64,000 nt of DNA, taken from Verrucomicrobiota bacterium. Lineage in GTDB: Bacteria; Verrucomicrobiota; Verrucomicrobiia; Limisphaerales; Palsa-1400. The translations under genes and the position numbers were made by a program. The notes under the pieces are model-generated. The model was not told the origin of the DNA. It saw nothing but the letters and a program-made list of their open reading frames with translations, and made no database searches. The stretch spans positions 26,697 through 90,696 of the forward strand of contig JBEKYR010000019.1 in NCBI GenBank assembly GCA_049510745.1, written 5' to 3'. This document shows, in pieces, positions 1-51,421 of the stretch. Within the stretch, counting starts at the first letter, position 1; every line of letters begins with the position of its first letter.

Positions 1-822
1 GCGGGCGCGTCGGCCTGCACGGACGTCACGGGCTTCGGCCTCTTCGCCCATCTGCTGCGGATGCTGCGGCCGGGCGGACTGGGCGCGGAAATTTTCGCGG
101 AGACGCTGCCGGCCTTCGACGGCGCGATGGACGCCCTGCGGCAAGGCGTGATTCCGGGCGCGATTGAGCGCAACCGCGAGTATGCCGGCGACGCGCTTCA
201 CGTTGCGCCGGGCGTAAACGAGGCCGCGGTGAACCTGGGATTCGACGCGCAGACTTCCGGCGGCTTGCTGATCGCCGTTCCGCCGGAGCGGCTGGAACGG
301 TTGCGGCAATCTCTGGCCCGGCGCGGCGCCGGCCATTTTGTCATCGGCAAAATCGTTGCTGAAGCCGGACAGATTTATCTTTCAGCGGCCGGCAACAACA
401 CGGCGGAAATTTCAAGATTGAATTCAACCCTTCAACCGCGGAACATTGATTCCATGACAACACCAAAGAAAAATTCCCCGCCCCGCCACGGCGATTGCTG
501 CGCGGGCGCGGGCGAAACCGCAGCCGGTTCCGCCGCCGAATCAGAAAAGGCCTTTGACGCGCTGATCCGGTCGGTGCGATCGGCGGGCGCGCTGGATGAA
601 AAGACGAAGGAACTTATTCTGTTCAGCCTGGTCGTGGGCAGCCGTTGTCAACCATGTTTTGAGGCGCATCTGCGCAAGGCGCGCGAACTGGGCCTCTCGC
701 AGGCGGAACTGGACGAGGCGGCGTGGTGCGCCATCGCCCTGGGCGGCGCGCCGGTCATGATGTTTTATCAGGAATGCCTGGAGCGGATTCAATCGGGCAA
801 GGCGGACCGGGCGCGACCTTGA
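1..822 (+). CDS. selD: Selenide, water dikinase (5'-truncated) fused in frame to a C-terminal carboxymuconolactone decarboxylase/AhpD-like domain
   Basis: Frame is open from base 1. It contains the SelD motifs ACTDVTGFGLFAH and DAQTSGGLLIAV, then a linker, then ALDEKTKELI...CQPCFEAH (CMD/AhpD CxxC). tRNA-Sec lies 4.6 kb away. Confidence 0.9.
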   Translation, partial: AGASACTDVTGFGLFAHLLRMLRPGGLGAEIFAETLPAFDGAMDALRQGVIPGAIERNREYAGDALHVAPGVNEAAVNLGFDAQTSGGLLIAVPPERLERLRQSLARRGAGHFVIGKIVAEAGQIYLSAAGNNTAEISRLNSTLQPRNIDSMTTPKKNSPPRHGDCCAGAGETAAGSAAESEKAFDALIRSVRSAGALDEKTKELILFSLVVGSRCQPCFEAHLRKARELGLSQAELDEAAWCAIALGGAPVMMFYQECLERIQSGKADRARP

Positions 823-990: not shown

Positions 991-1236
991 GTGATTACAA
1001 CATTTAAAACCGACACGGTTAATTTTGGCGCCAAAGGCCAGGTGGTCATCCCCCGCCGTCTGCGCAGGGAATTTGAAATTGAGGAGGGGACGAAGGCGCA
1101 GGTGTATGTTGAGAACGGCCAGATTGTGCTCAAACCGATCACGTCGAAATTCATCAGAAGTTTGCGCGGCTCCTTGAAGGGCACCAAGGCGATGGAAACC
1201 TTCATGGCGGAACGGAAGCGGGAAAGGGAATTATAA
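991..1236 (+). CDS. AbrB/MazE/SpoVT-family antitoxin
   Basis: KGQVVIPRRLRREFEIEEG AbrB signature; overlaps the PIN gene (TAATG). Confidence 0.9.
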   Translation: MITTFKTDTVNFGAKGQVVIPRRLRREFEIEEGTKAQVYVENGQIVLKPITSKFIRSLRGSLKGTKAMETFMAERKREREL

Positions 1237-1637
1237 TGGCCACCAAGGTTCTGGACAGTTGGGCACTCATGGCGCTCTTCAATGAAGAACCCGCCGCCAG
1301 CGCGGTGGAAAAACTTCTGGCCCAAGCCGCTGCTGACCGGCACAAACTTTTGATGAGTGTGGTGAACTGGGGTGAAATTTATTATTCCGTGGCACGCGGA
1401 GCTTCCCGCGAAATGGCGGAACAAAAAGCCAAAGAAATTGCCGCCATGCCCCTTGAGATTGTGCCTGCCGATCTTCACCAGACTCACCAGGCTGCGATTT
1501 ACAAGGCCGCGTGCAGAATGTCCTACGCCGACTGCTTTGGCGCGGCCCTGGCCAAGATCAAAAACGCAGAGTTCGTCACCGGCGACCCGGAATTCAAAGA
1601 AGTTGAGAAGGAAATAAAAATCAACTGGCTGAAATAA
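1236..1637 (+). CDS. vapC: VapC-family PIN-domain toxin
   Basis: VLDSWA, NWGEIYY, SYADCF and VTGDPEF PIN motifs; 133 aa. Confidence 0.9.
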   Translation: MATKVLDSWALMALFNEEPAASAVEKLLAQAAADRHKLLMSVVNWGEIYYSVARGASREMAEQKAKEIAAMPLEIVPADLHQTHQAAIYKAACRMSYADCFGAALAKIKNAEFVTGDPEFKEVEKEIKINWLK

Positions 1638-1655
1638 TCGCAGCCCGAGAAAACT

Positions 1656-3950
1656 ATGGCATACGAAGAACTGGTCATTGATCTACTGAAGGCGGAGCGT
1701 GAGGAAGACGTTACTGCCGCGCTCACAGTCTATGGCTTGGAGAAATTCACTGATTCGAATTGGATTCCATATGGGGGAACGCTTTTTGAAAATAATTACG
1801 GATTGATAGGGACGCAACAGGCTGATTCGCTTGGCGCTCTAGTCGAAAAGGTCGTGAATTCGATTGATGCAGTTCTGATGCGGGAATGTCTAGCGAGAAA
1901 CCTCGATCCCAGAAGTAATCTTGTGCCGCGAACGATGAACGAAGCGGCTGAACAGTTCTTGAACATTCCAGAAGGCAATTTAGCCAAGCTGTCTCCAACA
2001 CAACGGACAGAACTGGCCGAAAAGAATATCAGCATCATCGTGACAGGGCAGAAGCCTGACGAAGGCAACCCATGCATCATAGTTGCTGACACCGGAGAGG
2101 GACAGAGGCCCGAAGACTTCAAAGACACCCTTGTTTCATTGCTTCGCAGCAACAAATGTTCTGTCCCGTTTGTTCAGGGCAAATTCAACATGGGCAGTAC
2201 TGGCAGCCTAGTGTTTTGTAGCCCGAACAAGAATTACCAGTTGATCATTTCACGACGTAACGCGGCAATTCCTACAGCCCGAAATTCAAAATGGGGATTC
2301 ACTTTAATCAGGAAGCGTCCTCCAATGAAGAATGAGAAGAATGAGCGTTATGAATATCTCGCGCCGAAAGGGAAGATCTGTGAACTCGATCTTGATGAAA
2401 TCCCAATTTTTCCAGACGCCGAAAATGTGCCCTACAAACGCCCAATCAAATGCGGGACGATCGTAAAGCTTTACGAGTATGACCTTCCGAGAAGTATAAA
2501 GACGATGGCGACCGCAGATTTCTACCGGGCTTTATCAACCAAGCTCTGGACGGTGGTCGTTCCGATGCGAATTTATGAGGCGCGGGGTTACAAAGGTCAC
2601 ACTCTTGAGAGCACGTTTTCTGGGATGAACATCCGGCTTGAAGATGACAAAGGTGACGTCCTGGAGGAAGGGTTTCCATGCAATTTTACTCTTAATATTC
2701 CGAAGGTCGGAATGGTTGATGGGCGCATTTGCCTATTCAAAAAGGACGCCGAAATCTCACGTTGGGTAAGTTCACGAGAGGCGATCATTTACACTATTAA
2801 CGGCCAGTCTCACGGCGCGCTGCCGAATGATTTTTTCCGACGCCAGTCAGTCAATCTCCCGTGGATACAGAAACAACTCTTGATCAACATTGATTGTTCG
2901 CGCCTCGACCAGCAATTGATCAACAGAATGTTTATGACCAGTCGCGACAGGCAGCGCGATGTTCAGGAAAAAGACTTCCTAGAGTCTGCCCTGGCCGAAT
3001 TTGTTCGCAAGCATCCGGGGCTTCGGGAGTGGAACGAGCGACGCCACAGAGAAACGGTCGAGGAACAGTTCGTGGAGGAATCAGAAACGATCGAACTATT
3101 TGAAAAATTAGTAGCGCAGAATCCAGCACTCGCTGAGATTCTCGGTGTTGGTCTCAAAATCAAAGTCCCAAAGCCCGGCGAACAGCCGACTTCAAAGTTC
3201 GAAGGCCAAAGATTCCCAACGTTTTTGAAACTCGAAGACGCCCATAACAACGACGATTTCGTCAAAAAGTGTCCCCAGAATTCCTATTGTCGCGTTACTT
3301 TATTAACCGATGCGGAAAACGATTATTTGGTCCGAGCGATTGAGCCGGGGAAACTTATCATCAGACCGGAAGCATTGGTCAAGAGTACTAGCCTCTACAA
3401 TGGCCGGTTGGAACTGCAACTAGCCCCGGAAAAAATGTACGATGTTGGTCACCGTATTGAAGTAAAGGTAATGTTAACCAGCCCGAACTCGACCGAGGGC
3501 TACTTTTCAGTTCGGTTTTGGCTGGAGATCGATTCGCCAGTGCAGCCAAAGAAGAGTCCTCCCAGCCCGCCCAAGCCGCCAAAAGTAACGACCGTGGCCC
3601 TGCCTGAAATCAAAGAAATCAAAAAGGATCAATGGGCCGAGGCTATCGAAATTACTTCCGACGATGATGTCGTGAAGATAATGAAGGACAACCAAGGGAC
3701 GACTTCTCTCGTGAACATGGATAATCGCCACTACCGCCGCTATGTTTACGCCAACCCCAAGCGAGAGCAGGAGATTAGAAACCTCTACAAGATCTCATCA
3801 ACAATCATGGGGCTTTGGCTGCTCGAACAGGTTGATAAAGGTGGTCTCCAGGAGGAAAACCGAAGATCGGTGAGTAACTCACTTGGCCGGCTTCTGCTTC
3901 CTTTGGTTGATTCACTAGGGAGCAAGTTGGCTGAATTAGAGCAAGGGTAG
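1656..3950 (+). CDS. GHKL (MORC/Hsp90/MutL-like) ATPase-domain protein with uncharacterised C-terminal region
   Basis: Bergerat motifs EKVVNSIDA, DTGEG and QGKFNMGSTG; visibly lower GC than flanks. Confidence 0.75.
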   Translation: MAYEELVIDLLKAEREEDVTAALTVYGLEKFTDSNWIPYGGTLFENNYGLIGTQQADSLGALVEKVVNSIDAVLMRECLARNLDPRSNLVPRTMNEAAEQFLNIPEGNLAKLSPTQRTELAEKNISIIVTGQKPDEGNPCIIVADTGEGQRPEDFKDTLVSLLRSNKCSVPFVQGKFNMGSTGSLVFCSPNKNYQLIISRRNAAIPTARNSKWGFTLIRKRPPMKNEKNERYEYLAPKGKICELDLDEIPIFPDAENVPYKRPIKCGTIVKLYEYDLPRSIKTMATADFYRALSTKLWTVVVPMRIYEARGYKGHTLESTFSGMNIRLEDDKGDVLEEGFPCNFTLNIPKVGMVDGRICLFKKDAEISRWVSSREAIIYTINGQSHGALPNDFFRRQSVNLPWIQKQLLINIDCSRLDQQLINRMFMTSRDRQRDVQEKDFLESALAEFVRKHPGLREWNERRHRETVEEQFVEESETIELFEKLVAQNPALAEILGVGLKIKVPKPGEQPTSKFEGQRFPTFLKLEDAHNNDDFVKKCPQNSYCRVTLLTDAENDYLVRAIEPGKLIIRPEALVKSTSLYNGRLELQLAPEKMYDVGHRIEVKVMLTSPNSTEGYFSVRFWLEIDSPVQPKKSPPSPPKPPKVTTVALPEIKEIKKDQWAEAIEITSDDDVVKIMKDNQGTTSLVNMDNRHYRRYVYANPKREQEIRNLYKISSTIMGLWLLEQVDKGGLQEENRRSVSNSLGRLLLPLVDSLGSKLAELEQG

Positions 3951-4126: not shown

Positions 4127-5011
4127 TCACTTTTGACACTCCTCATTAGACGTGGTTTGCGGCAGGGCAAAGCACGGTTCAATGGCGCCGCAGGTGGCGC
4201 ATTCCAGGCAGCGGATGCAGCCGGAAACGTTGACGGCCTGATCCACTTTCACACCCATCGGGCAGCGGCTGCGGCAGAGGTTGCATTCGACGCATTGCTG
4301 CGGATTGAACCGGAGATGAAACAGGCTCAACCGGTTGAAGAGCGCGAGCAACCCGCCGAGCGGACAAAACACGCGGCACCACGGCCGGTGAATGAAAAGC
4401 GCGGCCGCAAGAAAGGAGAGCAAAATGCCGCTCTTCAACCCGCTCATCAGCCAACCGTTGCCGGCAAGCAGGCTTTGCACGGAGTAAGGCACGCCGGCTT
4501 CCAGCGCGCCGGCCGGACAAAGCCGGCAAATGGAAATGACCTGCCTTTCAAATGGAATGCCGTTGAAACCCAGAATCAGCGGCAGAAGAATCACCAATCC
4601 TACCAGAACGAAGTAACGGCCGTAACCGGTCCAGGACGGCAGGATGATTTTCCGGGTGGTGATTTTGCCGAGCAAGTCCTGGAGAAAACCGAACGGACAA
4701 GCCCAGCCGCAAACGATGGAACCGCCGGCCGCGCCGACGAGCACGAGCACGCCGATCAATAAATACGGCACTTCCCCCGCCACTGGCAGCAGCGCCGCGT
4801 AGTTGGCCATCACACCCACCGGGCAGGCGAAGGCCGAGAGCGGGCACGAGTAACAGTGGAACACGCAGCCGGGAATGCCGTGCAGCCACCGGCCCAGCGG
4901 CGCGAGCCACAGGCCGAGAAAACCGGTTTGCACCCAGGGACGCCAGCGCGAGAGTTTTCGTCCGAGCGCCGCCGGCTTCCATTCAGGGCAATTGGGAACG
5001 GGACATTCCAT
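4127..5011 (-). CDS. Membrane 4Fe-4S binding protein (NapH/MauN-like polyferredoxin)
   Basis: CGWACPFG and WCRVFCPLG motifs, C-terminal CVECNLCRSRCP and CIRCLECATC, several TM segments. Confidence 0.9.
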   Translation of the reverse strand: MECPVPNCPEWKPAALGRKLSRWRPWVQTGFLGLWLAPLGRWLHGIPGCVFHCYSCPLSAFACPVGVMANYAALLPVAGEVPYLLIGVLVLVGAAGGSIVCGWACPFGFLQDLLGKITTRKIILPSWTGYGRYFVLVGLVILLPLILGFNGIPFERQVISICRLCPAGALEAGVPYSVQSLLAGNGWLMSGLKSGILLSFLAAALFIHRPWCRVFCPLGGLLALFNRLSLFHLRFNPQQCVECNLCRSRCPMGVKVDQAVNVSGCIRCLECATCGAIEPCFALPQTTSNEECQK

Positions 5012-5021
5012 GGGAACAGGT

Positions 5022-5040
5022 CGGCCACGCCACGTGGCCG
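5022..5040 (-). promoter_or_regulatory. Putative SECIS hairpin 3
   Basis: CGGCCAC-GTGGC-GTGGCCG, a perfect 7-bp stem with the loop at +21..+25 from the TGA at 5056-5054. Confidence 0.75.
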
Positions 5041-5044
5041 GAAT

Positions 5045-5419
5045 TCATCTTATTCAGGTGGGACAGGGCGTTTTTGCGCCGAGGTCCACGCGGATTTTCC
5101 ACGCCGGCGGCTGGGTATGGGCCTGTTGTTTGGCCCAGCGGTCAAGCGCCTCGCCGGGATTGGCCACGGCATCGAGTTTCGGCGGCGGCGGCGGCGCGAC
5201 TTGGTCCGGGTATTGCAAACCGCCGGAGGAGAAGGCTTTGACCAACTGCGTTTCCCACGCCGTGTTTCCGTCCGTGGTGTCCACGTTGGTCAGATGCCGC
5301 GCGCCGCTAAACAGCAGCGCCGCGCCGGTCAGCGCGACAACCAAGCCGGACCAGAAATCGTGGTCTTCCCGCGCGCGCGACGCGCGATTGACCGGTGGCT
5401 GGGGGACTCGCTTGAACAT
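5045..5419 (-). CDS. Putative small membrane selenoprotein, 124 aa, ending ...KTPCPT-U-IR (CxxU; Sec122)
   Basis: ATG at 5419, one TM helix, Cys-Pro-Thr-TGA, SECIS-like hairpin at conserved spacing, directly downstream of selC. Without recoding the ORF ends at 5054. Confidence 0.7.
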
Positions 5420-5437: not shown

Positions 5438-5534
5438 TGGCGGAGGTGGATGGGAATCGAACCCACCTGGGACTTTGTTGAGTCCCACGCTGGTTTTGAA
5501 GACCAGGAGCGCCACCAGGTCGCCCCACACCTCC
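5438..5534 (-). tRNA. selC: tRNA-Sec (anticodon UCA), 97 nt
   Basis: Acceptor GGAGGTG/CACCTCC, G discriminator plus encoded CCA, anticodon arm CTGGT-CTTCAAA-ACCAG, long variable arm TGGGACT/AGTCCCA, T-loop TTCGATT. Confidence 0.95.
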
Positions 5535-5694
5535 CCGGCGGACCGCCGCGCCGCTGGCCAATGGCAGGCGTGATTGATTTCCGGCGGGCCGCATCACACA
5601 GGTATATTGACAGATTGGAGCGGATAACTCAATCCGAATTTAGTCGCCAGCCGCGCCATAAATGGCAGACTGTTTGCACGTCAGGAAAGAATTT

Positions 5695-6531
5695 ATGGAC
5701 ATTCGAAAAGCCGTCATCACCGCCGCCGGTCCGGGCCAGCGGACGCTGCCGCTGCAAACGCTGGTTGACCGCGACGGCAAAACCAAGACCGCGCTCGGCA
5801 TCATCGTGGAGGAGGCGCTCAATTGCGGCGCGGAGGAAACCTGCGTGGTGGTCCATCCGGGCGACGCCGAGGCCTACCGCGCCGCCGCCGGGCCGCACGG
5901 CAAGCGATTGCAGTTCGTGGAGCAGGAGAAGGCGCTGGGCTACGGCCACGCCGTCTGGTGCGCCCGCGCCTTCACCGGATCGGAGCCGTTTCTGCTCCTG
6001 GTCGGCGATCATCTTTATCTGAGCCGGGAGAAACGCAGTTGCGCGCGGCAATTGGTCGAGGTCGCCGCGGCCGAGGCCTGCGCCGTTTCCGCCGTGCAGG
6101 CCACGCACGAAAGCAAACTGCCCTATTACGGCGTGGCGGGCGGGCGGCTGGCGGAGAACCGCAAAGGCCTTTACCTCATTTCCGAGGTGCTGGAGAAACC
6201 GACCCCGACCGTCGCCGAACAACGCCTCATCGTTCCCGGATTGCGCGCGGGCCATTATCTTTGTTTTTTCGGGATGCACGTTCTGACGCCGGCGGTGATG
6301 GATTTGCTGGGGGCGGAAATGGCCGCCGGCCAGGCGGCCAGCCTGAGTCAAACACTCGCCAAGCTGGCCAGCCGCGAGCGCTATCTGGCCTGCGAATTAC
6401 AGGGACGCCGGTTTGACATCGGTTTGAAATACGGCCTGCTGACCGCGCAACTGGCGCTGGCCCTGAGCAGCCCGGCCCGCTCCGAAGTGCTCGCCGGACT
6501 CGTCGAACTCCTCGCCCAGGAACCCCATTGA
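5695..6531 (+). CDS. Sugar-phosphate nucleotidyltransferase (GalU-like)
   Basis: [27 protein letters not shown] and EKP motifs. Confidence 0.85.
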
Positions 6532-6539
6532 TCACGCGC

Positions 6540-9500
6540 ATGGCCAGCCCGCTCCTCGACATCATCACCTCGGCGGACGCGAGAATTCGCAACCAGCCGC
6601 TCGACGCCTTTTGCGCCCGCGCCCCGGCAGATGAACTGCTGGCGGCCTGCGCGGAACTGGAGGGCTTCCGCCGCCGCAGCGACAATCTTTACGAGCGCGT
6701 CCGCGCGTTGTTCTTCCTTTACGCGATTCACCGTTTTCATCTGCCGGGGAAACTGCCCGCGGGCGCGGACGGCATGATTCCCTTCAAAGGATTCGAACAT
6801 CTGCTGCACCGCCGGTTTGAAGAGGCGCTCGACCAGTTTCTTTCCGCGCAAAAAAGCGGCGGCCCCAGCGACGCCCTTTGCAGCGCGCTGGCCGCCGTGT
6901 ATCAACGCATCGGCTTTCAGACGCTGGCCGACCAGGTGCGGCGCAGCGTCCGTTCGGTGCGCGGCAACCAATGGATGTTCCGCATGGGCCATCCGGAGGA
7001 TCATCCGTTGCGCGTGCGCCCGGAACTGCTGCAACGCGGCGCGGACGGCGCCTTCCCCGTGCTGCGCGAACGCACCCCGGTGCGGATGGATTTGAGCCAT
7101 TCGGGCTGGAGCGACATTTTCTTTCTCGGCATGGATTTTCCCGAAGGCGCCCGCGTGCTCAACGTCTCCATTGACCTGGGCGTTCACGGGCGCGACCAGG
7201 CGGCGCAGCCGCCGGTGGAGGCCTGCTTGCGGGTGATTGACGAACCGGTTTTGCGCCTGACCAGCGTGGACCTCGGCGCCACGGCGGAGATCAACAATCT
7301 GGCCGAGGTTTTTGATTTCGCCCGCGACTACCTCGGATTGCTCAAAGCGGCCGTCATCGCTGCCGGCATTGTGCCGCCGGGCATTGAAGGTTCGGGACTC
7401 AATCTGGCCGACTTGCTCGCGCGGGTCGCCGGGGCCGGGCGCGGCCTGGAATTGGTCAGCCACGTCAACGATATTCCGAAAGGCTCGCGCCTGGCGGTCT
7501 CGACCAACCTGCTCGCCTCGCTGATTTCCGTCTGCATGAGGGCCACCGGCCAGGCCAAGTCGCTGACTGGCGCGCTGGCCGAGGAGGAACGGCGCCTGGT
7601 GCTGGCGCGCGCGTTGCTGGGCGAATGGCTCGGCGGCTCGGGCGGCGGCTGGCAGGATTCCGGCGGCGTGTGGCCGGGCATGAAACTCATTTGTGGCGTG
7701 ACCGCGACGGAAGGCGATCCCGAATTTGGCATCAGCCGGGGCCGGCTCATGCCGGCGCACCGCATTCTGGATCGCCACGACGTTTCGTCCGAGACGCGCG
7801 AGCGTTTGCAGCAAAGCCTCGTGCTCGTCCACGGCGGCATGGCGCAAAACGTCGGGCCGATCCTCGAAATGGTGACGGAAAAGTATCTGCTCCGTTCCGC
7901 CGCCGAATGGGCCGGACGGCAGCAGGCCATCGGGTTGCTCGATGAAATCGTGTCGGCGCTGCGCGCCGGAGATGTGCGCGGGGTGGGCGCCCTGACCACG
8001 CGCAATTTTTGCGAGCCGATCCAAACCATCATTCCGTGGGCCAGCAACGCCTTCACCGAATCGGTCATCGCGTCCGTGCGGGACGAGTTTGGCGCGGATT
8101 TCTGGGGGTTCTGGATGCTCGGCGGCATGTCCGGCGGCGGGATGGGTTTCATCTTTGAGCCGCAACGCAAGGCGCGGGCGCAGCAGCGGTTGCAGGAAAT
8201 CATGTCGCAAACCAAGCGCGAACTGCAACACGCGCTGCCCTTTGCCATGGAGCCGGTGGTCTATGATTTCGCCATCAACGAGCGCGGCACCTGGGCGGAC
8301 CTGCTGCGCGGCGACGAGGCGTTGCTGCCGCGCGGCTACTACGCGCTGCATGTTCCGCGCTGGCTGCGGGCCGATCCGCAGGCGCTGACCAGGGCGCAGC
8401 GCGCCGAACTGGACAAGTTCGGCGCCGCCTGCCGCACGCGAACGGAATTGTCCGGCATGATGCAGACGCTCTTCGACCGCCTGCTGCCCCGGCTCAAATC
8501 CGAGGGCGGCTCCCAGCAAAGCCTGGCGGAATTGCTCGAACAAAACGGCTTCGACCGCGTGCAGCATGAGCAGATTCGCGACGATTTGAAAGACGGCCGC
8601 ATCGGCTTGGCCCAAAACCGCCTGCCCGCCAGCGCCGACATCAAGGACGTGCAGGATGCCGATGTGTTCAATGCCACCGGGCCGTTGGCGGAGGAATTGC
8701 GCCAGGCCGGCCTGGCCGCCCTCGCCCGCGGCGAACTGGCGGTGGTCACGCTGGCCGCCGGCGCGGGCAGCCGCTGGACGGAAGGCGCTGGTGTGGTCAA
8801 GGCGCTGCATCCGTTCTGCAAATTCAACGGCCTGCACCGGACGTTCATCGAAACGCACCTGGCCAAGAGCCGCCGTATCGGCCAACTGGCCGGCCAGACG
8901 CTGCCGCACTTCTTCACCACCAGCTACCTGACCCACGCGGCCACCGAGGAATTCCTGCGCCGGAAGAAAAATCATCATTATCCCGGACCGCTGCTCCTGT
9001 CGCCCGGCAGGTCCATCGGGCTGCGGATGATCCCGATGGTGCGCGACCTGCGCTTTCTCTGGGAGGAGATGCCGCAGCAACGGCTCGACGAGCAGCAGCA
9101 AAAAGTGCGCGACAGCCTGCGGGCCGCGCTCCTCAACTGGGCCCGTTCGGCGGGCGAGGGCGGCGATTACACCGACAATCTCCCGGCCCAATGCCTGCAC
9201 CCGGTGGGACACTGGTTCGAGGTGCCGAACCTGCTGCGCAACGGCGTGCTGGCGCGCTTGCTCGCCGAACGTCCGCAGTTGCGGCACCTGATGTTGCACA
9301 ACATCGACACGCTCGGGGCGGACGCGGACCCGGCGCTCTTCGGTTTGCATCTGGCGCAGGAGGGCTGCCTGACGTTCGAGGTCATCACGCGCCGGCTGGA
9401 GGACCGCGGCGGCGGCCTGGCCCGCGTTAATGGCCAGGTGCGGCTGGTGGAAGGACTGGCCATGCCGCGCGAGGAGGATGAGTTCCAACTCCGCTTCTAC

Positions 9501-9860
9501 AATTCAAACACCTGCTGGATCGACATCGACAAACTGCTGGCGGTTTTCGGCTTGAGCCGGGCCGACCTTTCCAAGGCGGAACACGTCGCCGCCGCCGTGC
9601 GCGCGCTGGCCGCGCGCATGCCGACCTACATCACGATCAAGGATGTCAAGAAGCGCTGGGGCCACGGCCAGGAAGACGTGTTCCCGGTCAGCCAGTTTGA
9701 GAAACTGTGGGTGAACATGACCGCGTTGCCGGAAGTGAAAACGCGCTTTGTCGTGGTGCCGCGCCTGCGGGGACAACAGCTCAAGGACCAGGCGCAACTG
9801 GACGGCTGGCTGCGCGATGGCTCGGCCGATTTCGTCAACCAGCTTTGTGCCTGGCCGTGA
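6540..9860 (+). CDS. Bifunctional GHMP sugar kinase / UDP-sugar pyrophosphorylase fusion
   Basis: [22 protein letters not shown] and GGMSGGG (GHMP); C-terminal [24 protein letters not shown] and QFEKL (UDPGP family). Confidence 0.85.
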
Positions 9861-9910
9861 ATACGGATTGATATTGCAGTAAGCCCTTCGATTTGCTAAT
9901 AGCCTGTCTA

Positions 9911-12010
9911 ATGGCAAAGCAAAAGACTGGTGGCTTATCATGGCGCTGGCTGGGAACCGCCGGGGTGGCTTGCTGGACGTGTGCGCTGTTGGTTGTGCTT
10001 TGCTCGGAAAACAGGCTTCGCGCGGCTGATTCTCTTCTTTCCGGTTCTCCGTCCTCAAACGCCGTCATGGCTGCGCTGGAGTATCAGGAAACAGACTCTG
10101 GCGTCATCAACTGGGGCGTTTCCCTGACGCCGCGGACCAGTCCTTTCAAAAAAGAGCCGGCGGCGGCTTCGGGCAAAATCATTCGCGGCGTTTTGAATTT
10201 CGGCGCCGATTCCAGCAACTCCATTCCCTTTCTCTGGCAGTGCCAGGCGGGAAAACTTTACCTCGACCTCAATCGCAACCAGGATTTGACCGACGATCCC
10301 TCCGGCCTGTTCTTGGCGCGCGCCGCGAAGCCGGATAATTACCAGACCTTTGCGAACGTCCACCTGCTTTTCAACACCGCTTCCGGCAGGTGCCGGGTGC
10401 TGGCGGACCTCTCCTTCTGGGACTACAGTGCGCCGCCAATTTGCAGCTTCGCGGTGCGCTCGTTCTGGCAAGGCAAACTGAGGTTGCAAGGGCGGGATTG
10501 GCAGGTGGGCATCGTCCCGAATATCCTGGACCGATCGGGCTTGTTCGAGAACAGCCGGTTGCTGCTGCGTCCCTGGGATAAACGAAGCCAGCCGTTCAAC
10601 GCGGATGATGGGTTGCTCGCCACTGTTCCCTTCTCGCGGAAACTTTTTGTGGATGGCCACGCCTATCAACTGGAGTGCGTCGCCCGTTCGCAAGACGGCG
10701 AAGCCAGGCCCGCGCTCCAATTCACGGAACAATCCGTCGCGCTGGGCGAAGTGAAAATCACCGGCCAATTCATCCGCCGCCTTGTTCTGCAGGGCGAGGC
10801 GTTCCTGGTGGTGCTCGATCAGCCGGCAGGCGTCGTGAAAATCCCGGCCGGCAGCTATCACCAGCCCGAGATCCTGCTCGAACAAGACGGCGTCGCGGCC
10901 TTCTCCCGCAATTCCGGCCAGTGGCAAATTGGCCGGCAGATTTCCGTGCGCGACAAGGCACAGGTGGCATTGAACGCGGGCGGGCCGTTGACCAATTCCG
11001 TCGCCACCGGCCGCCACGGTCAGGATTTGCGTCTGGATTATTGCCTGCTCGGCGTGGGCGGCGAAACTTACCAACTGGCCAGGCAAGATCGCTCCAAGCC
11101 GCCGGAGTTCGCGGTTTACAAGGGCGGAAAAAAAATCGCGTCCGGCAGATTTGAGTTTGGCTGAGGCAACACCTGCTCGCACTCATGGCGAGTGCCTCTC
11201 ACCGCCGGCGGCAAACTGTCCCTTGTGGCTTCGTCCGACCTCGGAGCGCTCGGTGCGAAGGAAGGTCCGGCGGTCATCTACGACTGGGTGTTGCCCAGCC
11301 TGGCGCCGCTGTTGCTGCCGTGGCTGGTCATTCTGGGATTGCTCACCTTGAAACGGAATCGTTGCGCGGCCGCGTGGTGGATTTGGCTGCCGCTCGGATA
11401 TGTGATCGCGTTTACGTTGGCGCCGCTGGACATCATGCCCGCGGGAACAGATTTTTTCCTGGATGTCATCGCGGCGCTGGCGGCGGGGCTGGGCGCGGTC
11501 TGGCTCCTGACAGATTATCTCCGGCGGCCACATCGGTTCGTTACGTTTCTGTGCCTCCTGCTCGCCTTGGCCGGTTTCAGCGCGCTGGCCTTTGTGTCCG
11601 CACAAAGCTGGAGTTTCACGTCGGAAACATTTGTGGCCGGCATCGTTCTGGCCGTGGGCGTGGTGGTCAGTGCGGTGGCGTTGAGTCTGGCCGGGCTGAT
11701 CTGCCGCGGCCGTTATCGTCGCGTCGGCCTTTATGGGTGGCTGCTCCTCTTGCTGGCCGTCATCTGGCTGGTGATCACCGGGCCTTTCTTTTTGTTCGCG
11801 CTCATCGCTTCAGGCGGAAGAGTGTCTTGGGGCGGATTCTTTGTTCCCGTTTTTGCGTTGGTGACGCTCCATTTCGCCACCCTGCTGCCGTTCCTGATCC
11901 TGTCCTCGGCCAGCCCGTTTTACCGCCAACGGCTCAAGGCCCTGCTGCACGTCACACCGGAAGCGCCGCCCGTGCTGGCGCCTTTGCCGGATGCCGGTTT
12001 AAAAACTTGA
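9911..12010 (+). CDS. Putative selenoprotein A, ~699 aa: exported domain, FEFG-U-GNTC (Sec418), then a multi-TM domain
   Basis: ORFs 9893-11164 and 11192-12010 are in one frame, separated only by the TGA at 11162-11164. The motif and hairpin recur in the next gene. Confidence 0.8.
11179..11195 (+). promoter_or_regulatory. Putative SECIS hairpin 1
   Basis: GCACTC-ATGGC-GAGTGC, loop at +21..+25 from the TGA. Confidence 0.8.
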
Positions 12011-12041
12011 ACTCGATGAACACCAAGCCAACCATGATGTT

Positions 12042-13313
12042 ATGAAACTTTCCAAACAACTGTTCCTGGCCGGAATGGTTCTCGCCGGCGCCGCCTTCGC
12101 GCAATCCGAGCAATGGCTGGAATACCACACCGGCGCCGAGGGCCGCGCCTACCAGCAGGTGGAACTGACCACCAATCCGCCCCCCGGCGTCGCTCTGCCG
12201 AAGTTCAATGCGCCGCCCTATTTCGCCCGCTGGCTCACGCCGATGGACCCCGCCGGCGGGCGCTGGCTCTGCCTGGACCGCACGCGCAAGTCCGGACCCT
12301 ATGACCGGCTGTTCTTTGACAACAACGGCAATGGCCGGCTGGACGACAAATCGCCCCTCCCGGCGCGGCTGGATTCCTCCTTCGCCTATTTTCCGCCAGC
12401 CCGCGTTGTGTTCAAGGGCGAGGACGGGCCGATCACCTATCATCTTGTCTTCCGCTTCTATCAATACGAAAAGAATCCCCCGCAATTGCTGGCCTCCTCC
12501 GCCGGCTGGTATGAAGGTCTGGTCAATTTCGACGGCGCGAAAAAGCGCATTCAACTCATCGACGGCAACGTCAACGGCACGTTCAACGACGTCGCCCCGG
12601 ACCCGTATGACTGCGACCGCGTCCAAGTCGAGGGCGACAAGACCAGCGAACGGTTTTTGGGCCGGATGCTGGAAGTGGACGGGAAGTTTTACCGGATCGA
12701 AGCCGCCCGCGACGGCGCGTTCGTCAAAGTGCAGAAGGCGGAGAACGTCACCCTCGGCCAGGTGCGTGTGCCGGAAAACATTTCCGAATTCGCCGCCTTC
12801 GGCCCGAACGGCCATTTCGTGCGCACACCGGCGGACGGCCAATTCACCTTGCCGGCGGGCCATTACCGGATTTTCCACTGGACGATCAGCCGCAAGGATG
12901 AAAAGGGCGCGCCGTGGACGCTCTCAGGCTATAATTTTCCCAAAACCGCCACCTTCGAGGTCGCCGCCGATAAGACCGCCTTGGTGCAAATCGGTGAGCC
13001 GGTGCAAGCCGTGCTCAAGGCGGCGGAGGGCGCCAAGCGTCAAGTCGATTTCAGCCTCAGCTTCGTGGGCCGGCAAAAGGAATCCATCGAGATGCTGTGC
13101 GACGGCCAGCGCCCGCGCGGGCCGAAATTGACGTTGGCCAACAGCGACGGGACGCTGTGTTATACGAACACTTTCGAGTTTGGATGAGGCGGCGTTTGCT
13201 CGCTCTCATGGCGGGAGCCTAAAAATGTGCGGCGTCCGTTGGTTGGCGGCGTCAAAATTTTCAGCCCGTTCCAGGTGCTGACGAGTCCGTTGACGCTCGC
13301 GCCAAAAAAATAA
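12042..13313 (+). CDS. Putative selenoprotein B, 423 aa, secreted, FEFG-U-GGVC (Sec382)
   Basis: Signal peptide. The TGA at 13185-13187 is followed by 41 open codons to TAA 13311-13313, 12 nt before the next ATG. Same motif as protein A. Confidence 0.8.
13202..13218 (+). promoter_or_regulatory. Putative SECIS hairpin 2
   Basis: GCTCTC-ATGGC-GGGAGC, loop at +21..+25; compensatory changes relative to hairpin 1. Confidence 0.8.
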
Positions 13314-13325
13314 ACTGATCATCGC

Positions 13326-16300
13326 ATGAAAACGACACGGCAATTCCTTCTGGTCTCTGCCGCTTGGGCGCTCCTGGGCGTCAGCACGCACGCCCAGACG
13401 CTGGAGCGGGTGGGGGTTCAAAAAGTGGCGGACACAGCCACGAACGCTGGCGCGCAAAAACTTACCGGAACGGTCACCGACGCCGCCGGCCATCCCCTGG
13501 CCGGCGCGACGGTGGAGTATTGGCGTTACGAGGGAAATCGGCTCCTGGCGAGTCCCTTGGAATTGATCGGGCAAATCACTACGGAAACGAACGGCGCTTT
13601 TGAATTCCAACTCTCGCGGGCGGCCGGATTCCTCCTGGCACGAAAGCCGGGCCTGGCCCCGGCCTGGATACAATTGGGCCAGCCGTATCCTTCCGTCGGT
13701 GACAGGGGAGAGAATTTGATGCTGACTCCGCCCGCGGCGCTGGCGGGCGTGGTGGTGGACGAAGCGGACAAACCTGTTCCAAACGCCCGGGTTTCCGTGG
13801 CCATTGCCATCTCCGAAATGTCGCAGGAGGAGGGAGCGCGAAGTCTTAATTATTTCACTGGCAAACCCGCGCGCGATTGTTTTGCCGCCCGCACGGATGC
13901 CGCCGGCCGTTTCCGCATCGAGAATTTTCCGACCAATGGCACGGCCGCCCTGACCGTTCAGGCGCCGGGAAAAGCTCTGCGCCAATCACCGCAGGAAGCC
14001 GGCGGCATGGACTCGCTGCCTTGGCGCGCGGGCCAGCAAGACATCAAATTGGTCGTGGAACCGGCCGGCAGCGTCGAAGGAAGGATTATCGTCGAGGGCA
14101 GCAATCAACCGCCGCCCGTCGCGCGGCTGACGTTGCAGCCCGATGGGCCGGGCTTTGCCGCGCTTGACGAGCGCGAGCCGGCGCCATCCGGCGCGGACGG
14201 CGCGTTCCAACTCAGCGACGTGCCCGCCGGTTCTTATCACATTCATGCCGTCTTTGGAACCAATGCCGTTCCGGAATGGGTCGCAGACATGGTTCCAGTT
14301 TCGGTTGAGTCCGGCCAACCCACGCGCGGCGTGCAGGTGACTGCGGTGCGCGGCGGCGTGCTGGAAGTGGCCGTGCTGGGTCAAAATGATCGCAAACCAC
14401 TGGCGCAAATTATGGTCAATGCCGTCAAGGAGAATTTTCAATCCGCCGCCAGTTCGGACAGCAACGGCATCGCTCTCCTGCGGCTGCCGCCTGGAGATTA
14501 TCAGGTGGCGGCGTTTCGTGAATCCATGCCCGCGAGCCAGACTCCCGCCAGCGTGGAAGCCGGCAAAACCAACCGCGTGGAGATTGAAATCGCCCCGCCG
14601 AGAAAAATCACCGGCATCGTCCGCCAACCGGACGGCCAGCTGGCGGCGGGGTTGCGGGTGAGATTGGTGGGTGGGTTTGGCCCCGGGGCGGGCGAAGTCA
14701 AGACCGATCCCGGCGGCCAGTTTAGTTTGGAATGGAATCAGCGCCGATTCGGACAGAACGACACGACTGCCTGCGTTCTCGTGCGGGACGCGGAACACAA
14801 TCTGGCCGTGGCGCAGGACATTGACGAAGACACCGGCCCGCTCGACCTGAAACTCGCGCCGGGGCTGACGCTGGCGGGCCGGGCGGAATCCGACGGCAAA
14901 CCCCTCACGAACGCGGCCGCCGCGCTGATTTTCTTTACCGGCAGAAGGGGCATGCACCTCGCCGGATTGAGCCGCGAAACCAACACGCCGGGCCGGTTTG
15001 AAATTCCCGCCATTCCGCCCGGACGAAAATACGGCGTCCTGGTCTCCGCTCCGGGTTACGGACAGAAGGCGAATTACGATGTGAATGCCGCCGCCGAAGG
15101 TGGCCGCATGGAACTGGATCCCTTTGAGCTTAAACCTGCCAACCTCAAACTCGCCGGCCAGTTGCTCGACGCGGACGACAAGCCGGTCGCAGGCGCCTAT
15201 GTGAATCTTTACGGAGAGGGCCAGCCCAGTGCAAACGCGCGCACGGACCGCGAGGGTCGCTTCCGCTTCGAGCATGTCTGCGAAGGCCCGGCTCGAATCT
15301 CGGCCAACAAGCAGAATTCATTCGGCAATATGTCGGCGGAAGGCGGCGACACCAACGTCGTTCTGCGGCTCGGTCAAACCCTCAACAACTCCCCGGGTTC
15401 CACCGCCCATAAACTCAAAGGCACTGTGACCGACCCCGACGGCAAACCCGCCGCCGGCGCGCAGTTGGCGGTGTTTCCGTCCTTTGATGTGAGTTGGACA
15501 AAGACCGCGACCAACGGCGCCTTCAGCCTCACTTGGTCGCTCCAGCCCTGGCAAATGCAGCAGTCAGGCGGCGCCGCGCTGCTGGTGGCCCGCGACCCGG
15601 CCCGCAATCTGGCCGCCACCGAAGAGTTGCCGGAGGAAACCACCAACCTCGACGTGAAATTGAAACCGGCCCTGACCGTCACCGGACTGGTTGAAAAAGA
15701 TGACGACTCTCCACTCGCGGGCGCGCAGGTCGGTGTCTGGCTCAAGGCGGGCAACATGTACGACCAGTTGAACCAACAAATGGCTGGGACCGACGCCCAA
15801 GGCCGCTACGAAATCAAGTGCCTGCCGCCGGATGCGTCATACATTGTTTTCGCCACCGCCAGCGGCCACGGTCGAAGCCAGCAGCAAGTTCAGAACGATT
15901 CCGAAACAAACCGCGTGGAACTATCGCCCTTCGTCCTCAAGCTGGCCGACCGTTTTTTGGCCGGCCAGGTGCTCAACGAAAATGACAAGCCCGTTTCCGG
16001 CGCGAACGTGTCGTTGAATGGCGAAGACCAGCCCCAAGCCAGCATGACCACCGACAGCAAGGGCCGCTTTCACTTCCAGGTTTGCGAAGGGCAGGTCCGC
16101 CTCTTCGCCAATTCCCCCCAAGGCGGTGAATTCGCGCAAGCCACCGCCGAAGCGGGCGACACCAACGTCGTGATGACTTTGAGTTCCCAGGCGGGGAATA
16201 TCCGCGAGACACCGCACCGCGCCTCGCTCAAAGGCAGTCCGCTGCCGGACTTGGCGGCCGTCAATCTCGCCGGCGACGCCGCCCCCGCCGGCCAGCCGGT

Positions 16301-16631
16301 GTTGTTATGCCTGTTCGACGCGGGCCAGCGTTCGTCGCGACACGTCGTCCACCAGTTGGATGGACAGGCCCCCGCGCTGCGGCAGCAAGGCGTCACGGTG
16401 CTGGGCGTTCAAGCCGCGGTCACCAGCGATGACATACTCAACGAATGGAAAAGCGCCAGTCCGGTTTCATTCCCGCTCGGACGCGTGGCGGAGAAATCCG
16501 AAAAATCAAAATGGGCCTTGGCCGTTCCGGCCTTGCCGTGGCTGATCCTGGCCGACGCCCATCATCGCATCATCGCCGAAGGCTTCCCGCTCGACGACCT
16601 GGACGCGCAGATCAAAACCCTGGCCAAGTGA
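13326..16631 (+). CDS. Secreted protein with tandem carboxypeptidase-regulatory-like beta-sandwich repeats and a C-terminal degenerate thioredoxin/TlpA-like domain
   Basis: Signal peptide, repeated G.V.D..GKP..GA.V and TD..GRF units; C-terminus LKGSPLPDL...PVLLCLFDAGQRSS...ALPWLILAD. Confidence 0.75.
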   Translation: MKTTRQFLLVSAAWALLGVSTHAQTLERVGVQKVADTATNAGAQKLTGTVTDAAGHPLAGATVEYWRYEGNRLLASPLELIGQITTETNGAFEFQLSRAAGFLLARKPGLAPAWIQLGQPYPSVGDRGENLMLTPPAALAGVVVDEADKPVPNARVSVAIAISEMSQEEGARSLNYFTGKPARDCFAARTDAAGRFRIENFPTNGTAALTVQAPGKALRQSPQEAGGMDSLPWRAGQQDIKLVVEPAGSVEGRIIVEGSNQPPPVARLTLQPDGPGFAALDEREPAPSGADGAFQLSDVPAGSYHIHAVFGTNAVPEWVADMVPVSVESGQPTRGVQVTAVRGGVLEVAVLGQNDRKPLAQIMVNAVKENFQSAASSDSNGIALLRLPPGDYQVAAFRESMPASQTPASVEAGKTNRVEIEIAPPRKITGIVRQPDGQLAAGLRVRLVGGFGPGAGEVKTDPGGQFSLEWNQRRFGQNDTTACVLVRDAEHNLAVAQDIDEDTGPLDLKLAPGLTLAGRAESDGKPLTNAAAALIFFTGRRGMHLAGLSRETNTPGRFEIPAIPPGRKYGVLVSAPGYGQKANYDVNAAAEGGRMELDPFELKPANLKLAGQLLDADDKPVAGAYVNLYGEGQPSANARTDREGRFRFEHVCEGPARISANKQNSFGNMSAEGGDTNVVLRLGQTLNNSPGSTAHKLKGTVTDPDGKPAAGAQLAVFPSFDVSWTKTATNGAFSLTWSLQPWQMQQSGGAALLVARDPARNLAATEELPEETTNLDVKLKPALTVTGLVEKDDDSPLAGAQVGVWLKAGNMYDQLNQQMAGTDAQGRYEIKCLPPDASYIVFATASGHGRSQQQVQNDSETNRVELSPFVLKLADRFLAGQVLNENDKPVSGANVSLNGEDQPQASMTTDSKGRFHFQVCEGQVRLFANSPQGGEFAQATAEAGDTNVVMTLSSQAGNIRETPHRASLKGSPLPDLAAVNLAGDAAPAGQPVLLCLFDAGQRSSRHVVHQLDGQAPALRQQGVTVLGVQAAVTSDDILNEWKSASPVSFPLGRVAEKSEKSKWALAVPALPWLILADAHHRIIAEGFPLDDLDAQIKTLAK

Positions 16632-37675: not shown

Positions 37676-39096
37676 CCACTAGCAAGGAGAAAAGCCAGGT
37701 TCTGATTGTGGACGACGAGGAGGCGATCTGCAAGTTGATCTCCCATTTGCTGGAGCAGGAGGGGTTTGCCCCGCTGGTGGCGCTGGACGGAAAGACGGCG
37801 CTGCAACAAGTGCGCACGGCGTCGCCCGACATGATGATCGTGGACCTGAAGCTGCCGGATTTGGACGGGCTGGAAATCCTTCGGCAGGCCAAAGCCCTGG
37901 ATGAGGACCTGCCGGTGGTGATTTTGACCGCCCATGCGAAAGTCCACGGGGCAGTGGAGGCGATGCGGGCGGCCGCTTTCGATTATCTGGCCAAACCCTA
38001 CGACCATCAGGAACTGCTACAGGTCGTCCGCCGCGCCCTGGCCCAACGGCACCTGAGCCTGAAGGTCAAACGGCTGGCCCGCCAGAACAACACCAGCCAT
38101 GATCTGACGGAGATCATGGGTCCCAGCGCGGCCATCGGGCGGCTGATCGAGGACCTGAACTGCGTCGCCAAATCCAACTTCAGCGTCGTCATCATCGGGG
38201 AAACCGGCTCGGGCAAAGAAATCGTGGCGCAAGCCATTCACGGGAGCGGCCCGCGGGCCAAAGGCCCGTTTGTGCCGGTGGATGCCGGCGCAATTCCGGA
38301 GACGCTTTTTGAGGCGGAATTGTTCGGGCACGAAAAAGGGGCCTTTACCGGCGCGGTCGGCCGCAGGCCGGGCCGTTTTGAGCAGGCCAACGGGGGCACG
38401 CTCTTCCTGGACGAGGTCTTGAACATGCCGCTGGCCGCGCAGGCGAAAGTGCTCCGGGCGCTGCAAGAGAAGTCCTTTTGCCGGGTCGGCGGCACACAGC
38501 CAATCAAGATTGACGTGCGGGTGCTGGCGGCGGGCAACCAGGATTTGGATGCGGCCGTGGCGGCGGGACGGTTGCGGGCGGACCTCTTCTATCGGTTGAA
38601 CGAGTTCACGCTGCGGATTCCGCCGTTGCGAGAGCGCAAGGAGGACTTGCTCTACCTGGCGAAGCGGTTCCTGGATTTGACCAACCAGGAATTGAAAAAA
38701 GCGGTGCAAGGGTTTTCCGAGCCGGCCATCCGGGTGCTGCTCGATCACCCGTGGCCGGGGAATGTGCGCCAATTGCGCTCGACCATCCGGCGGGCCGTGT
38801 TGCTGGCCGGCGAGGTGGTGACCGAACAGCATTTGGATGTTCTTCGCGAGAACAATGAGGCTTGGCGGCGCGCGGCCTCACCCGTCAAGGCGCAAGGCGC
38901 GTCCGCCGGCGAGCTTTCGCTCAAGGAAATCGTGGCCCAAAGCAGGATGCTCGTGGAGCGGGAGGTCCTGTCACAGACATTGCGTCAAACAGGCGGCAAC
39001 AAAGCCAAGGCCGCACGCCTGCTTCGAGTGGACTACAAAACGATTCAATCGAAGATCAAACGTTACGGGATAGACACAAATGAGGAAACACAATGA
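37672..39096 (+). CDS. Sigma54-dependent response regulator (NtrC family; GvrA-like)
   Basis: Receiver domain, GETGSGKE, GAFTGA and Fis-type HTH. Confidence 0.95.
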   Translation: MTTSKEKSQVLIVDDEEAICKLISHLLEQEGFAPLVALDGKTALQQVRTASPDMMIVDLKLPDLDGLEILRQAKALDEDLPVVILTAHAKVHGAVEAMRAAAFDYLAKPYDHQELLQVVRRALAQRHLSLKVKRLARQNNTSHDLTEIMGPSAAIGRLIEDLNCVAKSNFSVVIIGETGSGKEIVAQAIHGSGPRAKGPFVPVDAGAIPETLFEAELFGHEKGAFTGAVGRRPGRFEQANGGTLFLDEVLNMPLAAQAKVLRALQEKSFCRVGGTQPIKIDVRVLAAGNQDLDAAVAAGRLRADLFYRLNEFTLRIPPLRERKEDLLYLAKRFLDLTNQELKKAVQGFSEPAIRVLLDHPWPGNVRQLRSTIRRAVLLAGEVVTEQHLDVLRENNEAWRRAASPVKAQGASAGELSLKEIVAQSRMLVEREVLSQTLRQTGGNKAKAARLLRVDYKTIQSKIKRYGIDTNEETQ

Positions 39097-39614
39097 AAAA
39101 AAAGAACCCAGGCAAAAATGAACCCGCGGGCGAAGCCGGCGGCAGTATTGGAGGCATCCTGTCGGGACTGACCGGCTTGGTGGAAAGGCTCAACGAGCTG
39201 GCGGAAACGGGCGGCGAACTGCGGCGCGGCGGCGAGATTCACGGCGCCGGCAAGGGGCTGAAAGGCATCTACGGATTTACGGTGAAGGTCGGCTTGGGCG
39301 AAGAGGGGGCGCACGTCGAGCCGTTCGGAAACATTCGCACCGACAAGGCCACCGGCCAGCCGGTGGTGGAGGAAATCCGGGAACCGGTTGTGGACCTGTT
39401 CGAGGAGAAAGACCACCTGCTGATTGTGGCCGAGATGCCGGGGATCGGGGCCGCGGACGTGCGGCTGGAGGTCAAGGACGACGTGCTGACGATCACGGCA
39501 ACCAAAGGCGACAAGAAGTACCGCAAAGAGATGCTCCTGCCCGGCAGTTATCCCAGGGAAAAAATGGGCCTCTCGTGCAACAACGGGGTGCTGGAAATCA
39601 AGTGTGTCAAATGA
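39093..39614 (+). CDS. Hsp20/alpha-crystallin protein (GvpH-like)
   Basis: VEPFGNI, REPVVDLFEE, VAEMPG and NNGVLEI; gas vesicle context. Confidence 0.85.
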   Translation: MKKKNPGKNEPAGEAGGSIGGILSGLTGLVERLNELAETGGELRRGGEIHGAGKGLKGIYGFTVKVGLGEEGAHVEPFGNIRTDKATGQPVVEEIREPVVDLFEEKDHLLIVAEMPGIGAADVRLEVKDDVLTITATKGDKKYRKEMLLPGSYPREKMGLSCNNGVLEIKCVK

Positions 39615-39628
39615 AGGGAGTCTGACCT

Positions 39629-51112: not shown

Positions 51113-51320
51113 TAGGGAGCGCCGGCCAGGGAACCAATTCCCTAGAAGGCCGCCGGCGGGCCGCGGCTGAATCTGAAAACCGGCGGAAAGCCCAATGAAT
51201 GGAACGGCATCGCCAGGCGGCGGCAGTCTCCCCCCGACATGGCATGACCTATGCGCAAGCAACGGGCGAGAACGATTCCAGGTTTCCTTGAAGGGTCATA
51301 AGTGAGCGAAACATCAAAAT
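51113..51320 (+). promoter_or_regulatory. Duplicated copy of the gvpA sigma54 promoter region (copy 2)
   Basis: Colinear with 44545-44750; TGGCATGACCTATGCG (51240-51255); AGGGAA-CCAA-TTCCCT (51128-51143). Confidence 0.85.
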
Positions 51321-51421
51321 CAAAGAATGTGAAACGCCCGGTTCAACCAAGCTGCATTCTTCCGCCCATGCCGCACCCGCCTGTTCGTATAACGACTGCT
51401 AAGAGAACATTAACCACACGT

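Follow-up and report, generated by a model that had tools for sequence, protein, structure and literature searches.

Two tandem genes, here called A and B, lie in a stretch of 64,000 nucleotides (nt), referred to below as the window, from the 94%-complete genome (G000) of a Verrucomicrobiota bacterium of the Limisphaerales (GenBank assembly GCA_049510745.1, contig JBEKYR010000019.1, positions 26,697 to 90,696 of the forward strand). Each gene contains a single in-frame TGA, at 11162 in gene A and at 13185 in gene B (Table 1), and a preliminary description, made from the letters alone, had proposed that both are read as selenocysteine (Sec, U). Read in this way, gene A unites an open reading frame (ORF) at 9893/9911-11164 with a second one at 11192-12010, the 3' half of the gene being annotated by gene callers as a separate ORF, and gene B gains 41 amino acids (aa), which cuts the gap to the next gene, at 13326, from 138 to 12 nt. 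The residues around the TGA are FEFG-U-GNTCSHSWRVP in A and FEFG-U-GGVCSLSWREP in B. These motifs, the tandem layout, the joining of gene A into a 699-aa protein with a membrane domain and the nearness of selD and tRNA-Sec were all found as first described. The view that A and B are otherwise divergent was not borne out, since homology spans the whole ectodomain (residues 89-395 of B match A with an E-value of 5e-6). Both products are probably exported, judging from their N-terminal hydrophobic stretches, gene B being predicted by structural modeling to encode a soluble exported form and gene A a form in which this module is attached to a polytopic membrane part.

Table 1. Genes, putative Sec codons and RNA elements of the locus, in window coordinates (SECIS, Sec insertion sequence; Ig, immunoglobulin).
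Feature	Position	Strand	Remarks
selD, 3' part	1..822	+	Cys form, C-terminal CMD fusion
NapH-like 4Fe-4S membrane protein	4127..5011	-	directly downstream of gene D; 77% identical to the copy in genome G165
SECIS-like hairpin of gene D	5023..5039	-	register and loop type as in A and B; past the real stop codon of D
Gene D	5045..5419	-	~124-aa membrane-anchored protein ending C-P-T-U-I-R; putative Sec codon TGA 5056-5054; start codon approximate
tRNA-Sec (selC)	5438..5534	-	19 nt upstream of gene D, same strand
Gene A	9911..12010	+	699 aa; ATG 9911, TGA stop 12010
Gene A, predicted domains			N-terminal hydrophobic segment, all-beta ectodomain, Ig-like Sec domain (~residues 358-462, U418), then ~seven membrane helices
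Putative Sec codon (TGA) of gene A	11162..11164	+	U418
SECIS-like hairpin of gene A	11179..11195	+	6-bp stem, 5-nt loop beginning 20 nt after UGA
Gene B	12042..13313	+	423 aa; all-beta, with signal-peptide-like N-terminus and an Ig-like Sec domain at the C-terminus (residues 319-423)
Putative Sec codon (TGA) of gene B	13185..13187	+	U382
SECIS-like hairpin of gene B	13202..13218	+	register as in gene A
Gene C	13326..16631	+	1101 aa; CarboxypepD_reg repeats and C-terminal thioredoxin-like segment without CxxC

The TGA is conserved in relatives of both genes. When 301 genomes of the class were searched with gene B, 12 of them yielded 19 matches; 18 of these matches carry exactly one TGA, and the remaining one has decayed to an N-terminal fragment. 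A profile built from 18 domains matched 22 times, in 14 of the 401 genomes searched from the phylum, with one TGA in every case. In Planctomycetota, the phylum of genome G605, 98 of 301 genomes match the family profile with up to nine copies per genome; 150 of these matches were listed and 20 further ones were not, and the weakest include stop-free distant relatives. The preliminary description had expected database entries to be truncated at FE(F/Y)G, and 119 of the best 120 (of 420) database homologues of gene A do end at F[EQA][FY]G. Furthermore, the profile gave 3,650 matches at E≤0.001 and 1,606 at E≤1e-10 among 1.84 billion cluster representatives; among the best 150 of these, at least one of which is a repeat protein and probably not a family member, 114 end exactly at the Sec column. 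A TGA-specific DNA pattern recovered at least 129 stretches from metagenomes, a set whose counts are biased by the pattern itself. Judged from these comparisons, this is a large family present in Verrucomicrobiota and Planctomycetota.

In the bacterial SECIS (bSECIS) model, as given in the available text of PMC13188914, the loop lies 16-37 nt after the UGA, a range into which the loops of the A and B hairpins fall. In 18 aligned copies, all 108 of 108 stem cells pair, and four of the six pairs have changed on both sides in a compensatory manner. None of 500 shuffles reached this paired fraction, and slid controls reached 25-67%, the latter comparison being favorable to the hairpin because it was chosen by eye from the same alignment. 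Of the 38 copies found independently of the DNA pattern, 37 have the full stem, whereas synonymous recoding leaves it in 1.1 on average (at most 4); for all 181 copies the corresponding figures are 168 and 7.2. The stem is lost in Cys forms from two genomes that lack selA, G677 and G830 (2 and 3 of 6 pairs), and is retained at L028 and L066, which represent two apparently recent changes. Because the conserved hairpin overlaps the coding sequence at this point, the SxSWR protein motif reflects in part an RNA constraint.

The family also follows the Sec machinery. G000 has selA, selB, selC and selD, with selA and selB lying directly upstream of the window on the same contig, in a row with selD, and all three scoring above cut-off; in other genomes the machinery was judged by selA alone. 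In the 401-genome phylum sample, selA occurs in 23 genomes, the family in 14 and both in 13. In Planctomycetota, according to lists compiled by hand, a TGA copy is listed for 63 genomes, of which 61 have selA, versus 220 of 301 genomes overall. Among 24 carrier genomes that were checked, selA is intact in 22. Five carriers from the Planctomycetota sample lack selA. Cys stands at the Sec column in G677 and G830, and G605 likewise has a Cys form, on a contig in which several frames are broken; the motif is gone from G846, and G668 is considered below. The preliminary description had suggested looking for TGA or Cys at this column, which is what the phylum-sample matches and genomes G677, G830 and G605, respectively, displayed. 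It had also named grounds for abandoning the Sec reading; none was seen, as neither TAA nor TAG occurs at the Sec column among the homologues examined, coding conservation is present on both sides of the TGA across homologues, and the TGA forms track selA.

Some observations weigh against the Sec reading. The TGA carrier G602 (92% complete) gave no selA, G150 has a broken selA beside its family gene, and G668 keeps TGA copies without selA. Related genomes are non-independent samples, and no weight was given to p-values. Single-sequence folding of the hairpins is unremarkable (z of -1.3 and -0.8), the minimum-energy fold of the gene B region is a different structure, and the first G of the loop AUGGC is at position 3, compared with position 1-2 in the published bSECIS model; a loop whose terminal bases pair, as in the GUGGC of 101 of 181 copies, would fit that position. 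Finally, the case for recoding is a comparative one, drawn from genes and genomes. Taken together, the comparative evidence led to the conclusion that genes A and B encode selenoproteins in which UGA is read as Sec, with a probability of roughly 0.97.

The preliminary description had also seen an unusual UxxxC spacing as a mark of the family. The spacing is indeed typical of the main subfamilies, with Cys at +4 in 34 of 38 Verrucomicrobiota copies found without the DNA pattern and a nearby Cys in 175 of 181 main-subfamily copies (mostly found by a pattern that requires the Cys). It does not define the family, given that the +4 Cys is present in only 22 of 43 planctomycete TGA copies, which were drawn from the 30 best loci and 20 distant loci chosen by hand. 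What stays constant in the family is Sec, as distinct from the UxxxC pair. Distant subfamilies have YG-U-GGGGW, YG-U-GSQ, or the dipeptides CU or UC; in one distant member (L226:2002-3597, minus strand), FGGC-U-SG, with a Cys-Sec dipeptide, is followed past the TGA by a ResA/TlpA domain with WCGPC. Forms without Sec also exist. Stop-free natural homologues run through the Sec column, and 38 stop-free domains among the top representatives have Cys at this column in seven cases, Gly in seven and other residues in the rest. Fusions to AhpC/Redoxin domains occur in three of the Cys forms (P0147, P0155 and P0267), and the canonical motif in its Cys form was met in a single relative in a collection of 185,579 genomes. 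A quick, unrooted tree of 104 domains, with the motif columns kept, placed A-type and B-type domains in separate supported groups and scattered the non-Sec forms among the Sec forms, well-supported branches forcing at least five changes. This scatter fits repeated loss of Sec, the direction of change not being proven by it.

Other proteins were met in the course of these comparisons. Exported proteins with CPS-TGA-GGSGGY and a hairpin are encoded at L231:12657-13238 (plus strand) and in L040 near 985 (plus strand); they are weakly similar to the Ig Sec domain (hhalign probability 40%) and possibly represent a further, CxxU subfamily. B-type genes in L008, L009, L099, L124, L183 and L184 continue for ~510-540 aa more past the Sec, with a LamG domain in those scanned. 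Stop-free proteins of 700-830 aa in L209-L214, from planctomycete genomes, share the beta region that precedes the Sec, lack the motif and have no Pfam match.

Structure prediction offers a view of the Sec site. A model of gene B (residues 22-423, from a 150-row alignment) has a predicted local distance difference test score (pLDDT) of 96 and is all-beta, with U in a turn between two strands and the Cys at the beginning of the next strand. A model of the Sec domain and membrane part of gene A (pLDDT 92) has the same sandwich followed by seven long helices. For both Sec domains, the best structural matches are Ig or fibronectin type III (FnIII) sandwiches with Z-scores of 8-9, the closest for B being generic (best Z 8.9, root-mean-square deviation 2.6 over 90 residues). 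The predicted place of Sec is accordingly a turn, G-U-G-G, between the strands of a beta-hairpin in an Ig/FnIII-like domain. Sequence searches gave no further lead: Pfam, searched with the stop-bounded pieces of A and B, and NCBIfam, searched with the read-through forms, returned no family match, nor did either for the family domain in relatives, and a search of PDB sequences with the 150-row profile found nothing below E 0.46. Foldseek with whole proteins gave no meaningful match, and these whole-protein searches left the membrane domain of A and the N-terminal 297 residues of B with no clear fold match.

A third candidate selenoprotein gene, D, which was not part of the preliminary description, lies between tRNA-Sec and the gene for the NapH-like protein. 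In 14 of 14 distinct copies, the TGA is followed by one or two codons and a stop and then by the hairpin. The family comprises at least 333 database clusters that stop at CPT, and 118 of the best 120 of these 333 end in CPT. Because read-through adds only two or three residues, coding conservation past the TGA offers no test for D; the product very probably contains Sec. Fusion of D to the NapH-like protein by read-through was considered and rejected, in view of the second stop in all 14 copies. A heuristic scan of G000 turned up no other selenoprotein that was convincing by eye, the scan being insensitive enough for D to fail its filter; molybdopterin, MvhD, AhpC/TSA and NiFe-hydrogenase matches in G000 have no internal stop, and the catalytic site of SelD is Cys. 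A, B and D are the only selenoproteins found in this genome.

Gene D belongs to a wider cassette that is likewise new here. Recurrent neighbors of the family are selABD, a double-cubane reductase (NF040772) with its activase and a methyltransferase, gene C, and the NapH-like 4Fe-4S membrane protein, orthologs of which occur within the cassette in other genomes. G000 holds all of these within ~26 kb, the reductase, activase and methyltransferase lying with selA and selB directly upstream of the window (G000:C19 17.2-26 kb). The neighbor survey included 20 long loci chosen by hand, many for their nearness to selA. Gene D occurs in 14 of 24 carriers versus one of 10 selA-positive non-carriers and none of 14 further genomes, the NapH-like gene in 17 of 24 carriers versus four of 10 such non-carriers, and NF040772 in 19 of 24 versus three of 10. 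Gene C recurs beside gene B in nine loci; its thioredoxin-like fold was judged by eye, in a segment without a Pfam match. In seven of 23 genomes, selA has a family gene no more than 16 kb away. Planctomycete cassettes at L234, L237 and L247 include a B12-binding protein and URO-D-like methyltransferases.

The preliminary description had not recognized the family and had left its novelty to a search. Among the sources consulted, in the parts of each that were accessible (including Table 1 of PMC13188914, with 119 families; PMC12013277; 10.1101/2022.07.06.499078; PMC13326102; and PMC13745706, the scope extending to neither BSepDB sequences nor bioRxiv supplements), no description of the A/B family was found, and none of the families of Haft and Tolstoy (2025), as they appear in PMC13188914 Table 1 with NCBIfam or Pfam models, matched. 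The closest known proteins are the UxxC/CxxU selenoproteins (thioredoxin-, peroxiredoxin-, DsbA/DsbG- and TlpA-like; PMC13188914 Table 1), which share the in-frame UGA, the downstream hairpin, dependence on SelABCD and often a nearby Cys; D likewise has CxxU, and some family members are fused to TlpA or Redoxin domains. In contrast to these, the Sec domain of the family is a predicted Ig/FnIII-like beta-sandwich and not a thioredoxin fold, and its motif is F-x-[FY]-G-U-G-G-x-C with a dispensable Cys. The only similar motif met in the catalogs was GUxG of hypothetical protein DG (NF049953), as listed in the accessible part of PMC12013277, which fits G-U-G-G; identity with DG was rejected, as the 172-position NF049953 model gave no match at the locus even at E 10, nor in the NCBIfam scans of A, B and relatives. 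The same publication states that deep-Sep is limited for families without Cys homologs, and the scarcity of such homologs would explain why pipelines based on Cys/Sec pairs miss this family.

The SAO locus of Haft and Gwadz (SaoB/X/P/L/T/C) is also a multi-selenoprotein cassette with exported members, truncated ORFs, and NF040772 with its activase. The cassette described here differs in having no Sao homology, MerB-like lyase or fixed ABC transporter, and in occurring in bacteria of the PVC superphylum. Membership in SAO was rejected, with no Sao model (SaoA/B/C/D/E/L/P/T/X) matching A, B, C, D or the scanned G000 neighbors; one weak, below-cut-off SaoX-like match lies beside another locus. 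The N-terminal domain of DsbD is Ig-like and extracytoplasmic, with a redox residue pair on a beta-hairpin, and the protein has a polytopic membrane part and a thioredoxin-like partner. Such DsbD/CcdA relays resemble the present arrangement in all three respects and differ from it in that the membrane domain of A lacks an invariant Cys and matches no DsbD family, Sec takes the place of Cys and the spacing is shorter. The top 50 structural matches of the Sec domain are generic Ig folds, among which nDsbD was not seen. Small CxxC membrane proteins of the CD1871A family sit beside 4Fe-4S membrane proteins. D resembles them in being small and membrane-bound, with its redox motif at the C-terminus and a PF12801/NapH-like gene directly downstream; it differs in its length of 80-125 aa and its CPTU ending. 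Identity with CD1871A was rejected, as NF040920, the model for that family, gave no match in G000.

A and B belong to a genuine selenoprotein family that is apparently uncatalogued and forms part of a multi-selenoprotein cassette. It may be among the larger bacterial selenoprotein families missing from current catalogs, and is accompanied by a second, small family in D. An Ig-like sandwich bearing Sec is a fold not identified among the cataloged families. Thousands of database proteins are cut off at this TGA, and A appears as two false genes. The family also offers an answer to why selA is so common in the planctomycete sample and present in a small set of Verrucomicrobiota, and the cassette offers concrete partners for testing.

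The function preferred for A and B, at somewhat less than even odds, is that they form the outer end of an extracytoplasmic selenol redox relay. UGA is recoded by the SelABCD of G000 through the hairpin overlapping the coding sequence; in the proposed relay, the NapH-like Fe-S membrane protein would supply electrons, and the small CPTU protein D would carry them across the membrane or along its surface. The exposed selenol of A or B would then attack a substrate in the envelope or environment, either a disulfide or a sulfur or selenium compound, with the +4 Cys resolving the intermediate where it is present and a partner thiol doing so where it is absent. The relay is favored because of the redoxin and TlpA fusions, the CxxU partner D and the membrane ferredoxin. 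In a broader and distinctly more tentative form, A, B and D with the NapH-like ferredoxin would make up a widespread and so far undescribed multi-selenoprotein envelope system of both Planctomycetota and Verrucomicrobiota, built from two new Sec families, for DsbD-independent, selenium-based electron export, and would be the main or only reason for the Sec machinery in many carriers. Several findings count against a relay. Cys at the Sec column in only seven of the 38 non-Sec domains is unusual for a catalytic Sec, the +4 Cys is absent in 21 of the 43 planctomycete TGA copies, the membrane domain of A has no invariant or near-invariant Cys, and the thioredoxin-like segment of gene C has no CxxC. 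In addition, D was not found in 10 of 24 carriers and the NapH-like gene was not found in seven.

The retention of Sec while Cys is lost, together with the CU and UC variants, would also suit a role in which the exposed selenol captures or attacks soft metals or organometalloids (Hg, As, Cu or Se compounds) at the surface and passes them to the cytoplasmic double-cubane reductase and methyltransferase in an SAO-like manner. NF040772 is enriched in carriers, as given above, and adjoins family genes in G000 and many loci along with its activase and an ArsM/DVU1556-like methyltransferase, and the same double-cubane link is reported for SAO in the accessible text of Haft and Gwadz (10.1101/2022.07.06.499078). 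However, double-cubane genes track SelD generally according to that text, which means that selenium use or anaerobiosis, more than this family, may lie behind the link; neither an uptake ABC transporter nor an efflux pump is fixed in the cassette, an NMT1-type binding protein occurs in three loci only, and the redoxin fusions point to thiol chemistry. A role in metal handling, one of the two main rivals to the relay alongside selenium supply, is regarded as unlikely, though worth keeping in view. More improbable is a role in selenium supply, in which the cassette would capture or reduce extracellular selenium species and feed SelD or a Se-containing Fe-S cluster. The clustering of family genes with selA and the 19 nt between D and tRNA-Sec would fit such a role, but are expected of any selenoprotein island that moves as a unit, and although no other selenoprotein was found in G000 and the system seems to decay together with the sel genes in G150, G602 and G605, a Sec-dependent uptake system would itself need selenium to be made.

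There is also only a slim chance that Sec is non-catalytic and that UGA read-through acts as a selenium-dependent switch for a structural surface protein, anchoring A and completing B. Adhesin and S-layer Ig domains have similar folds, LamG fusions occur in some B forms, and 31 of the 38 non-Sec domains have neither Sec nor Cys at the column and yet are full length. Against this stand the replacement of Sec by Cys in the selA-less G677, G830 and G605, the retention of the nearby Cys in most main-subfamily copies, both pattern-found and pattern-free, and the fixed position of the codon in one turn across two phyla. The notion that the TGA is a true stop, or encodes Trp or Gly under a variant code, with the downstream similarity a separate element, is scarcely credible: UGA-to-Trp recoding is reported in some Verrucomicrobiota (PMC13462651, in its accessible portion) and gene callers split A as noted, but TGA is the commonest stop in G000, ending 1001 of the 1754 ORFs that are at least 500 aa long, which led to rejection of a variant genetic code, termination at this codon would be predicted to cut the Ig domain before its last strands, and stop-free homologs run through a column at which no other stop was seen.

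A scan of the locus for promoters and terminators gave a result at chance level, and a look-up of sequencing runs listed none holding RNA. SelD (G000:C19 ~25.9-27.5 kb, its 3' part at 1-822 on the plus strand of the window) carries an N-terminal extension rich in Cys, CICD...CPC...CPC, and is fused at its C-terminus to a CMD/AhpD domain; L090 shares this layout, and L245 shares the CMD fusion. selA is far commoner in the sampled planctomycete genomes (220/301) than in the phylum of the window (23/401); most selenoproteins of these planctomycetes may be unannotated. Between selD and the NapH-like gene, the interval at 991-3950 (plus strand) encodes a toxin-antitoxin-type pair, PIN by Pfam and AbrB-like by eye, together with a 764-aa ORF whose GC content seems lower and which matched no family significantly. 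A GalU-like gene and a 1110-aa sugar-kinase/UDPGP fusion lie between tRNA-Sec and gene A (5662-9860, plus strand). Farther along the plus strand, Hsp20/GvpH-like, CDC48-like AAA and GvpL/F genes (39093-42693) suggest a gas-vesicle-related cluster, and a 3247-aa ORF lies at 51302-61045.

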